DNA of 64,000 nucleotides from Gammaproteobacteria bacterium (GCA_965221695.1 OZ244905.1:2176001-2240000), one strand, 5' to 3'; counted from the first letter of the stretch, positions 2,138 to 26,426 are shown. The notes: a model not told the origin generated them from the sequence alone. Program-made: numbers and translations.

Positions 2138-3166
2138 ATGCGGCTGCGCTCAGAACAACTCCCGACGCATCTGAACAAAGCCAACCTGCTGCCGGTCTAT
2201 TACGTCAGCGGCGACGAGCCGTTGCAATTACAGGAAGCCGGCGACCAGATTCGCGCCCGCGCCCGCGAGCTGGGTTATGAGGAACGTATAGTCCTGGATG
2301 TGGATGGAGGGTTTGACTGGAGCCAGTTGCGGGAAGCCAGCGCCAATCTGTCCCTGTTTTCCAGCAAACGCATCATCGAACTGAGGCTGGGCGGCCACAA
2401 GCCGGGCAGGGAGGGCGGCGCGGCGCTGTCCGACTACGCAAACAACCATTACCCTGACAACCTGTTGTTGTTGACCTCAGAGCGCGTTGACAGGAAGGCC
2501 CAACAGACAAAATGGTTCAAAGCGCTGGATCAATGTGGCTGCTGTATACAGGTTTGGCAGGTAGGGCCGGCCGAGTTGCCGGGTTGGATTATCGCCCGCT
2601 GCCGACGCCGGGACAAGCGAATTGCCCGAGGCGCCGCCGAACTTATAGCGCAACGGGTCGAAGGAAATCTGCTAGCGGCACAACAAGAAATAGACAAACT
2701 GGCGCTGCTGGTGGATCAAGCTGATATTGATAGCGACGCGGCGCTGAATATGGTGGTGGACAGCGCCCGCTACAATGTGTTCGACCTGATTGACAATGTT
2801 TTTGCCGGCAAACCGGAACGCGTTTCAAGGATGTTACGCGGCCTCAGAGATGAAGGGATCGAAGCGCTCAACGTTTACGGCGCACTGATGTGGGGATTTC
2901 GCCGGGCAGCGTCTGTTTCCCATGAACTGGCCCGGGGCAAACCCAAAGAACAGGTGTTTGGCGCCCATAGGATACAGGAACGGCAAAGGAAGAGCATCAA
3001 TATGTTGTTAAGACGCTTCAGCCCGGATCGGCTGTCGGCGCTGCTGGCTGAGGCGCTGGAAATCGACAAGGCCCTGAAGGGGGTCGTCGAAACGGATAGC
3101 TGGCGCCTGTTGGAGCAATTTATGTTTGCCTTAGCCGGCTACCGGCTAAGAAAAATGACGGGCTGA
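2138..3166 (+). CDS. holA: DNA polymerase III delta subunit
   Basis: LPVYYVSGDEPL, SLFSSKRIIEL and VEGNLLAAQQEIDKL motifs. Confidence 0.96.
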   Translation: MRLRSEQLPTHLNKANLLPVYYVSGDEPLQLQEAGDQIRARARELGYEERIVLDVDGGFDWSQLREASANLSLFSSKRIIELRLGGHKPGREGGAALSDYANNHYPDNLLLLTSERVDRKAQQTKWFKALDQCGCCIQVWQVGPAELPGWIIARCRRRDKRIARGAAELIAQRVEGNLLAAQQEIDKLALLVDQADIDSDAALNMVVDSARYNVFDLIDNVFAGKPERVSRMLRGLRDEGIEALNVYGALMWGFRRAASVSHELARGKPKEQVFGAHRIQERQRKSINMLLRRFSPDRLSALLAEALEIDKALKGVVETDSWRLLEQFMFALAGYRLRKMTG

Positions 3167-3181
3167 ACAAGATCTGACAGG

Positions 3182-4438
3182 ATGAATATCCACGATTACA
3201 TGCAAACATTGGGCAAGAGCGCCGGGGACGCGGCGCGCGCTATGGCGCGCGCCGATGCAGGGAGCAAAAACGCCGCGCTGACAGCCATCGCCGAACGGCT
3301 ACTGGAACGGCGCGCGCAATTGTCCGACGCAAACCGCGCAGATCTTGCCGCAGCGCGGGAAAATCGGCTCGCATCAGCGCTGCTCGACCGTCTCGAATTG
3401 ACTCCTGCCCGAGTGAAAGCTATGGCGGATGGCCTGATGCAAGTCGCCGGGCTGGCCGATCCCATCGGGGAGCTCTCCGGGATGAATTACCGTCCGAGCG
3501 GTATCCAGGTGGGGCGTATGCGGGTCCCGCTGGGGGTGGTGGGAATCATCTACGAATCCCGGCCCAACGTTACTGCGGATGCTGCAGGGCTGTGCATAAA
3601 ATCGGGCAATGCGGCGATACTCAGAGGTGGATCGGAAGCGATCCGCTCCAATCAAGCCATCGCCGCCTGTATTGTCGACGGTTTACAATCCGCCGGCTTG
3701 CCGGGCACGACTGTACAGGTGGTTGAAACTACTGACCGGACCGCGGTCGGGGAAATGCTGGCCCTGAACGAATATATCGACGTGATCATCCCGCGTGGCG
3801 GCAAGGGGTTGATTGAACGGATCAGCAACGAGGCCAAGATGCCGGTGATCAAGCACTTGGACGGGGTGTGCCATGTTTACGTGGACAGCCATGCGGACGT
3901 GGACAAGGCGGTGACCATTGCCTATAACGCCAAGACACAGCGTTACGGCACCTGTTGCACAATGGAATGTCTGCTGGTGGCGGCAACGCAGGCCGAACCA
4001 ACGCTGGCGCGCCTTGGACCCATGTTGGAGTCGGCCGGGGTGGAGATACGCGGCGACGAACGCGCCAGGCAGATCCTGCCTGGTATAACCGCGGCAACCG
4101 AAGAGGACTACTTCACGGAGTACCTGGCGCCAATCATGTCGTTGAAGATTGTCGACGGGCTGGACCAAGCCCTTGCGCATATCGAGTATTACGGTTCCCG
4201 GCATACCGACGCCATCGTGACAGAGAATGTAAGTCACGCGCGCCGCTTTCTGGCCGAGGTCGATTCCAGCTCGGTGATGGTGAATGCTTCGACCCGGTTC
4301 GCAGACGGATACGAGTACGGTCTGGGCGCGGAAATCGGCATCAGCACGGACAAATTTCACGCCCGCGGGCCGGTCGGACTCGAAGGGCTGACTTCACAGA
4401 AGTTCATAGTTATCGGTGACGGCCATATCAGAAAGTGA
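3182..4438 (+). CDS. proA: Gamma-glutamyl phosphate reductase
   Basis: [33 protein letters not shown] and [22 protein letters not shown]. Confidence 0.98.
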
Positions 4439-4460
4439 TTTCAGGCTCCGTGTGGATTGA

Positions 4461-5105
4461 GTGAGTAACGGGAAACCCATCGGTTTGATTGGCGGCGCAT
4501 TTGATCCGGTACATATCGCCCATATCGGCATCGCTCTGGAATGCGTGGCAGCGTTGAACCTCGAAAGGGTCGACTTTATCCCGACCAACATCCCTCCGCA
4601 TAAGGCCGAAACCCGCGCCGCGCCGCGCCATCGGTTGGCCATGTTGCGGCGCGCGTTGAGACCCTATCCGCAACTGTCAGTCAATGACCTGGAACTGAAG
4701 CGGGGCGGCATATCGTACACGATCGATACCTTGATCGCGCTACGTGCAGATGAACCGCAACGCGCGTTCTGCTTTATTCTGGGCGCAGACGCATTTGCGT
4801 CGCTGCCAACCTGGCGCCGCTGGCAGGAACTGACGGATTACGCGCACCTGGTAATTGTCAGCCGAAAGCGCCGGGGCGGGACGAATTGGGCGCCGGAACT
4901 GCAAGAGCGATACGCCGCGCGCGCCTGCGCCTCGGCGCTGGAGTTGCACACGCGCCCCAATGGCTGTATCCACAAAGCGGCGGTCTCCGTCCCGGATGTT
5001 TCATCCTCCCAGGCGCGCGCCTTGTTGAACGGAGAGCAGGACACGGAAAACATACTGCCCCCCGGTGTTCGGGACTACATCAGAGAGAACAACTTGTACT
5101 CATGA
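4461..5105 (+). CDS. nadD: Nicotinate-nucleotide adenylyltransferase
   Basis: GGAFDPVHIAH (HxGH-like), SYTIDTL, FILGADAF; proA-nadD-rsfS synteny. Confidence 0.95.
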   Translation: MSNGKPIGLIGGAFDPVHIAHIGIALECVAALNLERVDFIPTNIPPHKAETRAAPRHRLAMLRRALRPYPQLSVNDLELKRGGISYTIDTLIALRADEPQRAFCFILGADAFASLPTWRRWQELTDYAHLVIVSRKRRGGTNWAPELQERYAARACASALELHTRPNGCIHKAAVSVPDVSSSQARALLNGEQDTENILPPGVRDYIRENNLYS

Positions 5106-23958: not shown

Positions 23959-25083
23959 ATGAGCAGGGAACATCACATGCCGCCGGCTGGAGGCAGAGGT
24001 TCCGAAGAAATGCACAGTGTTGTAACCCCCCCGGATTTTCGGCTGCCGCCGGAACAGGTTCCCGAGACGGTTGTCGAACACCTCGCGAATGAGGAGCGGG
24101 ACGCGTGTATGCGTCAGATCAAGCGGCTGCTGCGGGAACAGAATGCCGTATTGGTCGCGCATTACTACACTGACCCGGATCTGCAACGGCTCGCGGATGA
24201 AACCGGCGGCCATGTATCCGATTCCCTGGATATGGCGCGCTTTGGCCACGAATCCGACGCGACCACGCTGGTCGTCTGCGGCGTGCGTTTCATGGGCGAG
24301 ACGGCAAAGATACTGAACCCGGAAAAACGGGTGCTGATGCCGGAACTGCAAGCTGATTGCTCCTTGGACCTGGGTTGCCCCGGTGACGCGTTCAACGCCT
24401 TTTGCGACAGCTATCCGGACCGTACCGTCGTGGTCTATGCCAATACCAGCGCCGCAGTGAAAGCGCGCGCCGACTGGATGGTCACGTCTGGCAGCGCGGT
24501 GGAAGTGGTCAGACACCTGGCGGAACAAGGAGAAAAAATCATCTGGGCGCCGGATAAGTACCTGGGCGAATATGTGCGTGAGCAATCCGGCGCGGACATG
24601 ATGTTATGGCAAGGTAGTTGCATCGTCCACGAGGAGTTCAAGGGCAGGGAGCTGGGAGAACTGAGACAAAAACACCCCGCCGCCAAGGTATTGGCGCACC
24701 CGGAATCACCGGCCCCGGTCATTGCCCAGGCCGACGTGGTCAGTTCCACCACGGGCATCATCAAGGCGGCGACCGAACTGGCGTCCGATACGTTCATTGT
24801 CGCAACCGATAAGGGCATCTTCTACAAGATGCAACAGGCCGCGCCGGACAAGACCTTTATCGAAGCGCCCACAGCCGGCCGGGGAGCCACCTGCAAAAGT
24901 TGCGGCCACTGCCCGTGGATGGCGATGAACAGCCTGACAAAGCTGCTGGAAACACTCCGTTCGGGCGCCAACGAGGTATTTGTCGAAAAGGAGATCATCG
25001 AACGCGCCCGCATACCGATAGAGCGGCTGCTGAACTTTGCCGCGCAACGCAAACAGGTCATCTACGGCAACAGCGACGCCTGA
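23959..25083 (+). CDS. nadA: Quinolinate synthase A
   Basis: [59 protein letters not shown]. Confidence 0.97.
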
Positions 25084-25125
25084 CCCAAGCGTCATAATCG
25101 CACCGCCCAGATTTTTTCCGTTTTT

Positions 25126-25141
25126 TGTGAGTTTTATCACA
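25126..25141. promoter_or_regulatory. Perfect CRP/FNR-superfamily box TGTGA-N6-TCACA
   Basis: TTTTTGTGA GTTTTA TCACAAAAA; centre 25133.5 is -61.5 from a putative TSS at A25195. Confidence 0.7.
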
Positions 25142-25159
25142 AAAACGCGAAAGTTTTCT

Positions 25160-25188
25160 TTGCCGAACAGAACATCTTTTCTCAGAAT
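25160..25188 (+). promoter_or_regulatory. Putative weak sigma70 promoter for the tRNA-like pair (sense strand)
   Basis: TTGCCG (25160-65), 17-bp spacer, CAGAAT (25183-88). Confidence 0.5.
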
Positions 25189-25196
25189 GGGCTGAT

Positions 25197-25227
25197 AAAA
25201 AACCCGTCCCCCTAAGGAGACGGGTTT
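25197..25227 (-). terminator. Intrinsic terminator of antisense unit 1 (possibly weakly bidirectional)
   Basis: CCCGTC/GACGGG GC stem followed by T6 on the minus strand; TTTATTCT on the plus strand. Confidence 0.8.
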
Positions 25228-25232
25228 ATTCT

Positions 25233-25335
25233 GCCCAGGTGGTGAAATCGGCAAACACAGGGGACTGCCACTCCCCCGGCCTCTGTAGCGAAACCTACAT
25301 GCCTTACGGGTTCGAGCCCCGTCCTGGGCACACCA
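25233..25335 (+). tRNA. Non-canonical tRNA: tRNA-Leu-type body, anticodon GCC (Gly), 29-nt variable region, ACACCA 3' end
   Basis: Acceptor GCCCAGG/CCTGGGC; D-arm GTG..CAC with GG; anticodon stem GGGGA/TCCCC, loop CT-GCC-AC; T-arm ACGGG-TTCGAGC-CCCGT. Confidence 0.8.
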
Positions 25336-25350
25336 TAGGCGCCAACAGCC

Positions 25351-25379
25351 ATTATCGTGGCCGGCGCAGGACTTGTCAA
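25351..25379 (-). promoter_or_regulatory. Sigma70 promoter, antisense to tRNA-like unit 1
   Basis: Minus strand reads TTGACA AGTCCTGCGCCGGCCAC GATAAT (17-bp spacer). Confidence 0.8.
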
Positions 25380-25385
25380 TATGAT

Positions 25386-25417
25386 AAAAAAACCCGTCCC
25401 CCGAAAGGGACGGGTTT
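25386..25417 (-). terminator. Intrinsic terminator of antisense unit 2
   Basis: CCCGTCCC/GGGACGGG stem followed by T7 on the minus strand. Confidence 0.82.
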
Positions 25418-25422
25418 ATTCT

Positions 25423-25525
25423 GCCCAGGTGGTGAAAACGGTAAACACAGGGGACTGTCACTCCCCCGGCCTCTGTAGTCAGACCTACATGCCTTACGGG
25501 TTCGAGCCCCGTCCTGGGCACACCA
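25423..25525 (+). tRNA. Non-canonical tRNA: tRNA-Leu-type body, anticodon GUC (Asp), 29-nt variable region, ACACCA 3' end
   Basis: Same stems as copy 1; anticodon loop CT-GTC-AC (25455-25461). Confidence 0.8.
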
Positions 25526-25540
25526 TAGGCGCCAACAGCC

Positions 25541-25569
25541 ATTATCGTAGCCGTACAGGGGGCTGTCAA
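25541..25569 (-). promoter_or_regulatory. Sigma70 promoter, antisense to tRNA-like unit 2
   Basis: Minus strand reads TTGACA GCCCCCTGTACGGCTAC GATAAT (17-bp spacer). Confidence 0.8.
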
Positions 25570-25679
25570 CAACATTTCGCGTACAGAAATCCGCGCGCAA
25601 TATATCAAGATATGCGTCTGCCCTGACTTGAATTATAAAACCATAAATGGGAACATTCCGTTAAAACCCGGAAAGAGAT

Positions 25680-26426
25680 ATGGCAGGACACAGCAAGTGG
25701 GCGAACATCCAGCATCGCAAGGGCCGACAGGACGCCAAGCGAGGTAAATTATTCAGCAGGTTGATCCGCGAGGTCACGGTATCCGCCCGGCTCGGCGGCC
25801 CCGACCCGGACGGTAACCCGAGGTTGCGCGCGGCCATCGACAATGCGCTGGCCGGCAACATGCCCAAGGACACCATCGAACGGGCTGTGAAGCGCGGCGC
25901 GGGCGGCGCGGAAGGCGAAAGCCTGGAAGAAGTGCGCTACGAAGGATACGGACCGGGCGGGGTCGCGGTAATGGTTGATTGCATGACTGACAACCGTAAC
26001 CGCACTGTCGCTGAGGTGCGGCACGCCTTCTCCAAATGTGGCGGCAATCTTGGCACTGACGGTTCCGTCGCATACCTGTTTTCCAAGGTTGGGCAGCTTT
26101 CCTACCCGTCTGGCACCGATGATGACGCCTTGTTGGAGGCTGCGTTGGAAGCGGGCGCGGAGGATATTGCAAACAATGATGACGGAACCGTTGACGTCTT
26201 GACCACACCGGAAGACTTTCTCGACGTCAGGGACAGCTTGGTTGAGACAGGTTTCCCGCCCGATGCCGCAGAGGTAACGATGCGCGCGGCAACCGGGCAG
26301 ACGCTGGACTTGCGTGGCGCGCAGACCATGACGTTGCTACTGGACACGCTGGAAGACCTGAACGATGTGCAGAAAGTGTATTCCAACGCGGATATTCCCG
26401 ATGAAATCCTGGCCCAGCTTGATTGA
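25680..26426 (+). CDS. yebC: YebC/PmpR family protein
   Basis: [33 protein letters not shown]. Confidence 0.98.

Follow-up and report, generated by a model that had tools for sequence, protein, structure and literature searches.

Between nadA (23959-25083, + strand) and yebC (25680-26426, + strand) in a 64,000-nt stretch of DNA from a Gammaproteobacteria bacterium (GCA_965221695.1, OZ244905.1:2176001-2240000; this whole stretch is called the window below), the intergenic span contains two tandem 190-nt units, each holding a tRNA-like cloverleaf on one strand and apparent promoter and terminator signals on the other. The question raised by this locus is which strand yields the RNA that matters, and what that RNA might do. 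Our analysis shows that each unit is a cloverleaf derived from tRNA-Leu(UAA), with its anticodon loop replaced and its variable arm lengthened by a hairpin whose loop changes fast, and that an antisense RNA of ~150 nt over the entire cloverleaf, CCA included, is almost certainly produced. The arrangement is conserved in several uncultured Gammaproteobacteria. Tentatively, and short of calling it probable, we prefer to read each unit as a sense/antisense module: a Leu-type tRNA with a switched anticodon, covered by an antisense RNA that is made constitutively.

The two cloverleaves lie on the + strand as follows, scored with the Rfam tRNA model RF00005 (cut-off 29 bits) and with R1, the covariance model of this family described below:

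25233..25330, + strand: cloverleaf 1 (RF00005 52.1 bits; R1 109.3 bits)
25423..25520, + strand: cloverleaf 2 (RF00005 53.3 bits; R1 108.9 bits)

Cloverleaf 1 has a tRNA-Leu(UAA)-type body with 7/5 acceptor/T stems, A73 and a 27-nt variable arm; its anticodon is GCC (25267-25269), its variable-arm loop is CGAAAC (25289-25294), and CACCA follows at 25331-25335. Cloverleaf 2 shares this body but has the anticodon GTC (25457-25459) and the variable-arm loop TCAGAC (25479-25484), again with CACCA after it. The tandem units are 94% identical across 167 nt, and only six differences separate the 98-nt cloverleaves: two in the D loop (25248 and 25252), one at the middle anticodon base (25268) and three in the variable-arm loop (25289, 25290 and 25292). 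All 27 base pairs are the same in both. An earlier reading of the window from its sequence alone (the sequence-only reading) had noticed that the copies differ in these three loops with every stem identical, and this proved correct; the probability that six differences all fall at unpaired positions is ~0.007, and that all fall in these three hairpin loops ~1e-4.

The ancestry of the cloverleaf can be read from genuine tRNA-Leu genes, which were the only matches in plasmid and phage collections and are read as TAA by ARAGORN. Copy 1 was aligned with three such tRNA-Leu(TAA) genes (from Acinetobacter, Proteus and a Klebsiella phage). Between the 5' end and the last base of the 5' anticodon stem it agrees with them at 28-30 of 32 positions; the 3' anticodon stem agrees at 4-5 of 5, and the T arm, the 3' acceptor strand and A73 together at 19-23 of 25. 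The anticodon loop shares 2 of 7, and the variable arm is ~14 nt longer. The likeness to tRNA-Leu(UAA) of the leuZ type thus extends over the acceptor stem, D arm, anticodon stem, T arm, A73 and CCA, whereas the elements have five of the seven anticodon-loop bases replaced to give Gly/Asp/Ala-type triplets, carry signals on the opposite strand and stand in tandem or dispersed arrays. Anticodon and body isotype disagree throughout, a Leu(UAA)-type body being combined with GCC, GTC, GGC, CGC or GGA. In their cloverleaf, their 7/5 stems and their universal bases the elements agree with a canonical tRNA, and they depart from it in the promoter and terminator signals on the opposite strand. BLAST of the cloverleaf against E. 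coli genomes returned nothing, or chance 31-nt matches in dpaL.

These opposite-strand signals, and the RNAs predicted from them, are the following:

25351..25379, - strand: predicted promoter of antisense RNA 1, sigma-70-type TTGACA-17-GATAAT (11/12 consensus matches; expected start ~25344)
25541..25569, - strand: predicted promoter of antisense RNA 2, sigma-70-type TTGACA-17-GATAAT (11/12 consensus matches)
25197..25230, - strand: predicted terminator of antisense RNA 1, hairpin of 12 pairs in the - strand fold with a T6 tail
25387..25420, - strand: predicted terminator of antisense RNA 2, hairpin of 12 pairs (7 G-C) with a T7 tail
25192..25344, - strand: predicted antisense RNA 1, ~150 nt (-69.9 kcal/mol, z -3.6; ends deduced from promoter and terminator)
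25382..25534, - strand: predicted antisense RNA 2, ~150 nt (-70.1 kcal/mol, z -3.5; the minimum free energy (MFE) structure is a mirror cloverleaf plus terminator)

The antisense unit encloses the whole cloverleaf together with its CCA, leaving a leader of ~13 nt, and the RNA is predicted to form a small hairpin at its 5' end and then a mirror-image cloverleaf, with 5 A-rich nt between this and the terminator. The same spans folded on the + strand give -55.2 kcal/mol (z -1.9) and -59.6 kcal/mol (z -2.8), and the cloverleaf folded alone is the MFE structure on either strand. One pair of terminator 1 is G-U on the - strand and so an A-C mismatch on the + strand, where the tail reads TTTATT. When the two units are compared outside the cloverleaf, three hairpin positions differ, as do 9 of the 17 bases of the promoter spacer, but none of the 12 positions of the promoter hexamers (- strand); hexamers kept the same around so divergent a spacer are the footprint of a working promoter.

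The same layout recurs in relatives. A genome scan with a pattern in which the anticodon stem and GGTTCGA were fixed gave 21 loci, and the covariance model R1, built from 17 copies, gave 23 full copies in the window and 14 loci. L001, L006, L009 and L012 were chance matches to the pattern (best model score 17 bits) and were dropped, and L010 and L021 were excluded from the pair counts. All family members come from records labelled Gammaproteobacteria or Pseudomonadales and form three subfamilies: A (the window with 2 copies, L011 with 3 in tandem, L019 with 5 dispersed over 4 kb, and L017 and L020 with 1 each), B (3 loci) and C (8 loci). In family A the - strand -35 element is TTGACA in 13/13 copies (12 full ones and the truncated L021), and at 17 nt it is followed by GATAAT, AATAAT, GATACT or CATAAT across spacers that are unrelated. 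Promoters of the TTGACA-17-GATAAT type with 11/12 matches are found at 2/2 window copies and 5/5 L019 copies, the fifth of the latter having AATAAT as its -10. The hairpin, which has its T6-7 tail on the antisense strand, and the A-run are invariant in the 12 full family-A copies, and the hairpin is always 5' of the cloverleaf. The layout recurs in family B, where the hairpin with its T-rich tail is likewise on the - strand. In family C conservation reaches ~190-200 nt to the left and ~100-110 nt to the right of the cloverleaf, giving a block of ~400 nt, and the flanking helices contain G-U pairs on the antisense strand that would be A-C mismatches on the sense strand (for example UG in 6 and CG in 2 sequences; CG in 4 and UG in 4; GU in 6; UG in 7). 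The family-C antisense RNA may therefore be longer, ~400 nt, with extra covarying helices; GGTCAA(T/C) occurs near both ends of the conserved block. Taken together, the sequence signals support an antisense RNA well, most strongly for family A including the window.

Selection has also acted on the cloverleaf. Across the 23 full copies the stems are maintained by compensatory change at 6 of 27 pairs, with 99.4% of cells paired; no shuffle reached the observed covariation score, slid controls were 32-49% paired, and the 7-bp acceptor stem and 5-bp T stem are present in 23/23. Variation is confined to the loops, in agreement with the diversification that the sequence-only reading had proposed. 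U8, A14, A15, G18, G19, A21, A26, U33, A37, G53, T54, T55, C56, A58 and C61 are invariant in all 23 copies and position 57 is always a purine; apart from the anticodon and the variable loop, change is seen only at positions 16, 17, 20, 32 (C or T), 38, 59 and 60. The positions that vary here are those that vary in real tRNAs, which is the pattern of a folded tRNA. The pyrimidine rule at position 32 holds on the sense strand only, and it is on this strand that the loop variation obeys tRNA rules.

These results bear directly on whether the units function at all. It is exceedingly improbable, in our estimation, that their function lies in the DNA or is absent, the units being decaying tRNA-Leu pseudogene repeats or landing sites for islands. 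Such an explanation would suit the variable flanks with restriction, toxin-antitoxin and transposase genes (family C and L019), the truncation of L021, and the acceptor-stem mismatches of L005, L007 and L018. But the compensatory changes and conserved promoter hexamers show selection on RNA and on transcription, and no integrase was found among the 56 neighbouring open reading frames (ORFs) scanned. In the truncated copy (L021:2480-2571) unrelated sequence stands in place of the 5' acceptor strand, D arm and hairpin, and the promoter TTGACA-17-CATAAT is kept.

Least probable of all the explanations weighed here is that the units are plain irregular tRNA genes of the sense strand, allo-tRNA-like or with a mismatched anticodon, beside which the opposite-strand signals are incidental, for instance neighbours' terminators. 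The Rfam scores of 45-55 bits for family copies, the intact cloverleaf and the presence of CCA are what this explanation expects, as is a related class II tRNA, in locus L010, that lacks antisense signals. Hexamers conserved in 13/13 family-A copies around free spacers, with the hairpin always 5', are by contrast not incidental, and the unit has neither a sense promoter of its own nor a downstream sense terminator. The L010 gene (2485-2577, in a Xanthobacteraceae record) is 93 nt long with the anticodon TGG and is called tRNA-Pro by ARAGORN; it has a family-A-like D arm and a CACCA end, is without antisense promoter or hairpin, and may be a free-standing relative of the sense element.

Within the cloverleaf the variable-arm loop changes most, with 11 distinct loops in 12 family-A copies; in families B and C it changes more gently. 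The arrays themselves diversify, as the sequence-only reading had supposed: the window has two copies against three in L011, and loop content differs between these close relatives, whose nadA genes are 96.8% identical and whose right intergenic regions show 2/126 differences. Their last units are identical but for 4 of the 6 variable-loop bases, and the loop TCAGAC belongs to the GTC-type copy in the window and to a GCC-type copy in L011. The variable loop either evolves faster than neighbouring sequence or is shuffled between copies. Integron or attC-like repeats and diversity-generating retroelements were considered as a source of the hypervariable loop and set aside, neither an integrase nor a reverse transcriptase having been seen among the same 56 ORFs in what was not a systematic search. 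The L019 genome holds two acceptor-stem versions, each compensated. Its copies lie at 226, 1284, 1868, 2486 and 3929, spaced by 584-1443 nt, each with promoter, terminator and palindrome (see below); a Gp49/HigB-like and HTH pair lies between two of them, and the copy at 226 is of the L020 type in its acceptor stem and T loop, as though it had been gained separately.

If an antisense RNA is made, what would it act on? The sequence-only reading had proposed that it binds tRNA-Gly or tRNA-Asp in trans in the manner of a T-box, as a programmable sensor or sponge. Its starting observations are right: the antisense anticodon loops read GUGGCAG and GUGACAG and the 5' leader contains UGGU, so that the RNA, like a T-box, can show a codon-like triplet in a loop and has a UGGN stretch. 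The antisense RNA is also real on sequence grounds, the GGC or GAC in the loop is flanked by U and A, and the triplets are abundant codons, hence matched by abundant tRNAs, both types of copy co-occurring in the three multi-copy genomes. We nevertheless regard a T-box-like mechanism as very improbable. The T-box model (RF00230) had no match on either strand of 25080-25690 at E values up to 10, and the elements differ from a T-box in lacking the stem I architecture, the antiterminator/terminator switch, covariation of N in UGGN with the triplet, and a gene regulated in cis. UGGN simply reflects its complementarity to the A73-CCA of the same element: 21 of 24 copies (window, L011, L019, and families B and C apart from L005) have U as N irrespective of the triplet (GGC, GAC, GCC, GCG or UCC), N is C in the two copies with G-CCA, both with a Gly-type triplet, and L005 fits neither. 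The discriminators are U73 in tRNA-Gly and G73 in tRNA-Asp, so N would have to be A or C. Moreover, UGGU lies inside the small 5' hairpin in the predicted antisense fold, and no gene follows the window units in cis on the antisense strand, nadA being convergent and each unit having its own promoter and terminator. Titration of the most abundant tRNAs by a small RNA (sRNA) is also implausible on amounts. Other sRNA families matched at a permissive Rfam threshold did so by chance, driven by the terminator.

A second possible target is the ancestor of the cloverleaf. The antisense RNA could pair with the genuine tRNA-Leu(UAA) or its precursor, through the acceptor strand and D arm and through the T arm and ACCA, and so titrate a rare tRNA and tune the reading of UUA and UUG. 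The body identities of 28-30/32 and 19-23/25 to tRNA-Leu(TAA) of other Gammaproteobacteria and phages would allow such pairing, the leader exactly complements A73-CCA in L019 and, L005 excepted, in families B and C, and few codons in these loci are rarer than TTA (rank 54-60 or absent), which would make the amounts needed for titration feasible. Set against this, copies within one genome (L019) differ in a compensated acceptor stem and in the D loop, as is expected if each element keeps its own fold and not its match to a single target. Nor would such pairing account for the replaced anticodon loop, the 14 nt added to the variable arm or the non-random triplets, and mature tRNAs are poor antisense targets. 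On balance we judge this explanation improbable.

Alternatively, the antisense RNA alone may matter, as a stand-alone sRNA in which the mirror cloverleaf is a scaffold that shows variable loops or the 5' leader to targets in trans (mRNAs or a protein), tRNA ancestry being mere history. This is unlikely but deserves to be taken seriously. The promoter and terminator evidence and the stable antisense fold fit it directly; paralogous arrays are common among sRNAs; the family-C RNA seems to be ~400 nt long with covarying extra helices; and the U-rich tail after an A-rich stretch (AGAAUAAA) resembles those of Hfq-binding sRNAs. What a stand-alone sRNA does not explain is the tRNA character of the other strand, namely the invariant universal tertiary bases (23/23) with drift at tRNA-variable positions, the Y32, U33 and R37 of the sense strand, and triplets that track the top codons. 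In addition, the seed is usually conserved in sRNA families, whereas here the single-stranded loops are the least conserved part. A small protein encoded on the antisense strand was also considered and rejected by eye, the window having a 10-codon AUG frame and L019 none.

The triplets, whose diversity the sequence-only reading had proposed to tabulate, are not random. Family A has GCC in 8 and GTC in 5 copies (L021 counted), with both types present in each of the three multi-copy genomes; family B has CGC in 3; and family C has GGC in 5 and GGA, CGC and GCC in 1 each. In 7 window genes the codons faced by GCC and GUC, that is GGC and GAC, rank second and third after CTG. In 10 ORFs from family-C loci GCC ranks first (faced by the main triplet GGC, 5/8), GGC second and GCG sixth. 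The anticodon triplets are thus non-random and mostly face the most-used codons.

It is the tRNA-type constraint kept by the sense strand that leads us to infer that the sense RNA matters too, and hence to favour a sense/antisense module. Its sense product would be a Leu-type tRNA (A73, leuZ-like D arm) charged with Leu, because leucyl-tRNA synthetase (LeuRS) is not known to read the anticodon. Charged in this way, it would decode the commonest codons for Gly, Asp or Ala; or else it would enter the A site uncharged, and in either case it would do harm. Silencing of the sense RNA would come from the strong, constitutive promoter of the antisense RNA together with the two-way upstream terminator, through transcriptional interference and full-length pairing, much as with the RNA antitoxin of a type I toxin-antitoxin pair. 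Both partners come from the same DNA, so that changes in the loops never break complementarity and the loops are free, even favoured, to diverge. The middle anticodon base would set which abundant codon is addressed, and the variable and D loops may make each pair private.

Conditional expression of the sense strand could come from a site upstream of the array:

25126..25141, no strand assigned: perfect TGTGA-N6-TCACA palindrome, ~55 nt left of the first hairpin

We take this palindrome to be a CRP-type site from the consensus. It is the sole example in the 64 kb (0.04 expected), and the same palindrome precedes 9/9 array-first family-A copies in five genomes, at a fixed distance from the hairpin. 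In the window it is followed by a candidate + strand promoter, TTGCCG-17-CAGAAT. A TATATAA-type box follows the palindrome in 7 of the 9 array-first copies and is weak in the window and L011; by our own count, the spacing of the palindrome to the TAAAAT or CAGAAT box fits an activator site near -61. In the proposed module the candidate CRP-type site may give conditional transcription of the sense RNA.

Several points weigh against a module with a working sense RNA. As regards transcription, the window sense promoter is unclear (TTGCCG-17-CAGAAT has 8/12 matches by eye), and the hairpin before the sense cloverleaf may also stop transcription of the + strand; a sense product that is never made cannot be selected. 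On the antisense side, no promoter in families B and C passed the promoter scan. The tRNA-like bases could be kept without selection on the element by gene conversion from a genuine tRNA-Leu gene, and for 17 of the 23 copies the anticodon stem and GGTTCGA were set by the search pattern itself, although the six copies detected by the model alone agree with the T-loop pattern. The sequence-only reading had looked to G-U pairs for the favoured strand, and they do favour the antisense strand in the flanking helices of family C; inside the cloverleaf, with 5 wobble cells on the sense and 2 on the antisense strand (99.4% against 98.9% of cells paired), the counts leave the strand undecided. CCA directly follows A73 in 15 of 23 full copies (L019 and families B and C except L005, which has ACCTCCA), but is offset by 1-2 nt in 7 of 12 full family-A copies, both window copies included, which is awkward for a working tRNA. 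The codon match is also imperfect: the GGA of L003 faces UCC, of rank 27, and the CGC of family B faces GCG, of rank 11, a weak match; the codon counts come from few genes, and G+C-rich triplets and top codons could coincide in part by composition. Finally, expression, charging by LeuRS, use by the ribosome with a 27-nt variable arm, and toxicity are all steps that we infer from sequence.

The sense/antisense module can be taken further, to an all-RNA addiction or stress module in which a Leu-accepting tRNA re-aimed at the commonest Gly, Asp or Ala codons is kept off by its complementary antisense RNA. We hold this more specific proposal to be doubtful. The sense RNA would then be a proteome-wide mistranslator, or an uncharged decoy in the A site that triggers the stringent response, and it would become free once the antisense RNA is no longer made, or under high cAMP-CRP; the hypervariable variable-arm loop would make the pairs private through loop-loop contacts, as in plasmid copy-control RNAs. 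The genomic context speaks for a sense/antisense module in general, copy number being variable and toxin-antitoxin and restriction genes lying nearby.

Some known systems come close. According to one report, irregular class II tRNAs with mismatched anticodons arrest the growth of E. coli and adjoin toxin-antitoxin genes (PMC5389517). Allo-tRNAs, as described in that report and in a review (PMC5389517; PMC7609411), share with the elements a long variable arm and an anticodon unfit for the body, GUC being among their commonest anticodons, and for some of them a use in translation is doubted. They differ in having 8/4 or 9/3 acceptor/T stems and Ser or Ala identity, against the 7/5 stems and Leu-type body found here (PMC5389517; PMC7609411). 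A term search of PMC5389517 did not turn up the word 'antisense'. CreTA is reported to involve an RNA toxin, CreT, that acts through tRNAs by sequestering them (PMC8501985). Type I toxin-antitoxin pairs and CreTA (PMC8501985) resemble the module proposed here in opposing a strong constitutive antisense or guide RNA to a harmful RNA, in variable copy number, in island-like settings and in translation as the target. The presumed toxin here would be a tRNA and not an mRNA or mini-ORF RNA, would be wholly covered by the antisense RNA, and comes without Cas proteins, in contrast to type I pairs and CreTA. At the level of sequence the elements do have what marks a type I pair, an overlapping antisense gene with its own promoter. 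Searches of the openly readable literature turned up no account of tRNA-like genes that lie inside antisense units.

What the units mean depends on the strand that works. If the sense RNA does, these bacteria would keep mis-decoding tRNAs aimed at their own most-used codons under control by RNA only. This would be a toxin-antitoxin or stress switch of a new kind, and an example from nature of mistranslation under regulation. If the antisense RNA alone is at work, it would represent a new family of sRNAs, with a mirrored tRNA as their framework and loops that evolve fast, and the question becomes what recognises the loops. In both cases these genes are overlooked or mislabelled by tRNA finders and annotation pipelines. 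ARAGORN detected neither window cloverleaf nor any of the family copies, with the 27-nt variable arm probably the reason for the window copies, and the Rfam tRNA model labels the family copies as plain tRNAs. On the - strand of the window a 300-codon open frame (24706-25608) runs across both elements and represents translated antisense cloverleaves; its version in the L011 genome has been deposited as a 200-aa protein (P0001), and the frame is almost certainly a spurious gene call. Such spurious ORFs were tried as a route to extra copies, and the protein collection yielded two proteins only: a protein of the L011 genome and another encoded on a contig of 538 bp, which seems to carry a further GCC-type copy.

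The element also marks variable regions of genomes. Gly-type family-A copies have as neighbours, on the antisense-RNA strand, Gly- and Asp-rich RTX calcium-binding repeat proteins and a serralysin-like protease:

L017:780-3095: RTX/protease ORF
L020:1-2200 and 2926-4845: RTX/protease ORFs
L021:2773-5055: RTX/protease ORF

A link to RTX proteins was rejected, as these contexts look mutually related and the window is without a GG.G.D-rich ORF. Five of the 8 family-C copies have pieces of Type ISP restriction-modification systems (Type_ISP_C, N6_Mtase, Eco57I) next to them, in most cases immediately downstream with respect to the antisense strand:

L004:2406-3917: Type ISP piece
L007:2772-3332: Type ISP piece
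L014:1-1659: Type ISP piece
L015:1-2193: Type ISP piece
L018:639-2339: Type ISP piece

For this adjacency, island insertion is more likely than a functional connection. VapBC-like pairs and a DDE transposase also occur near family-C copies. In the window, ruvCAB and tolQRAB-pal lie downstream of yebC, and the core setting of family C seems to be greA-[element]-NIPSNAP-rlmE, as seen in L013 and L007.

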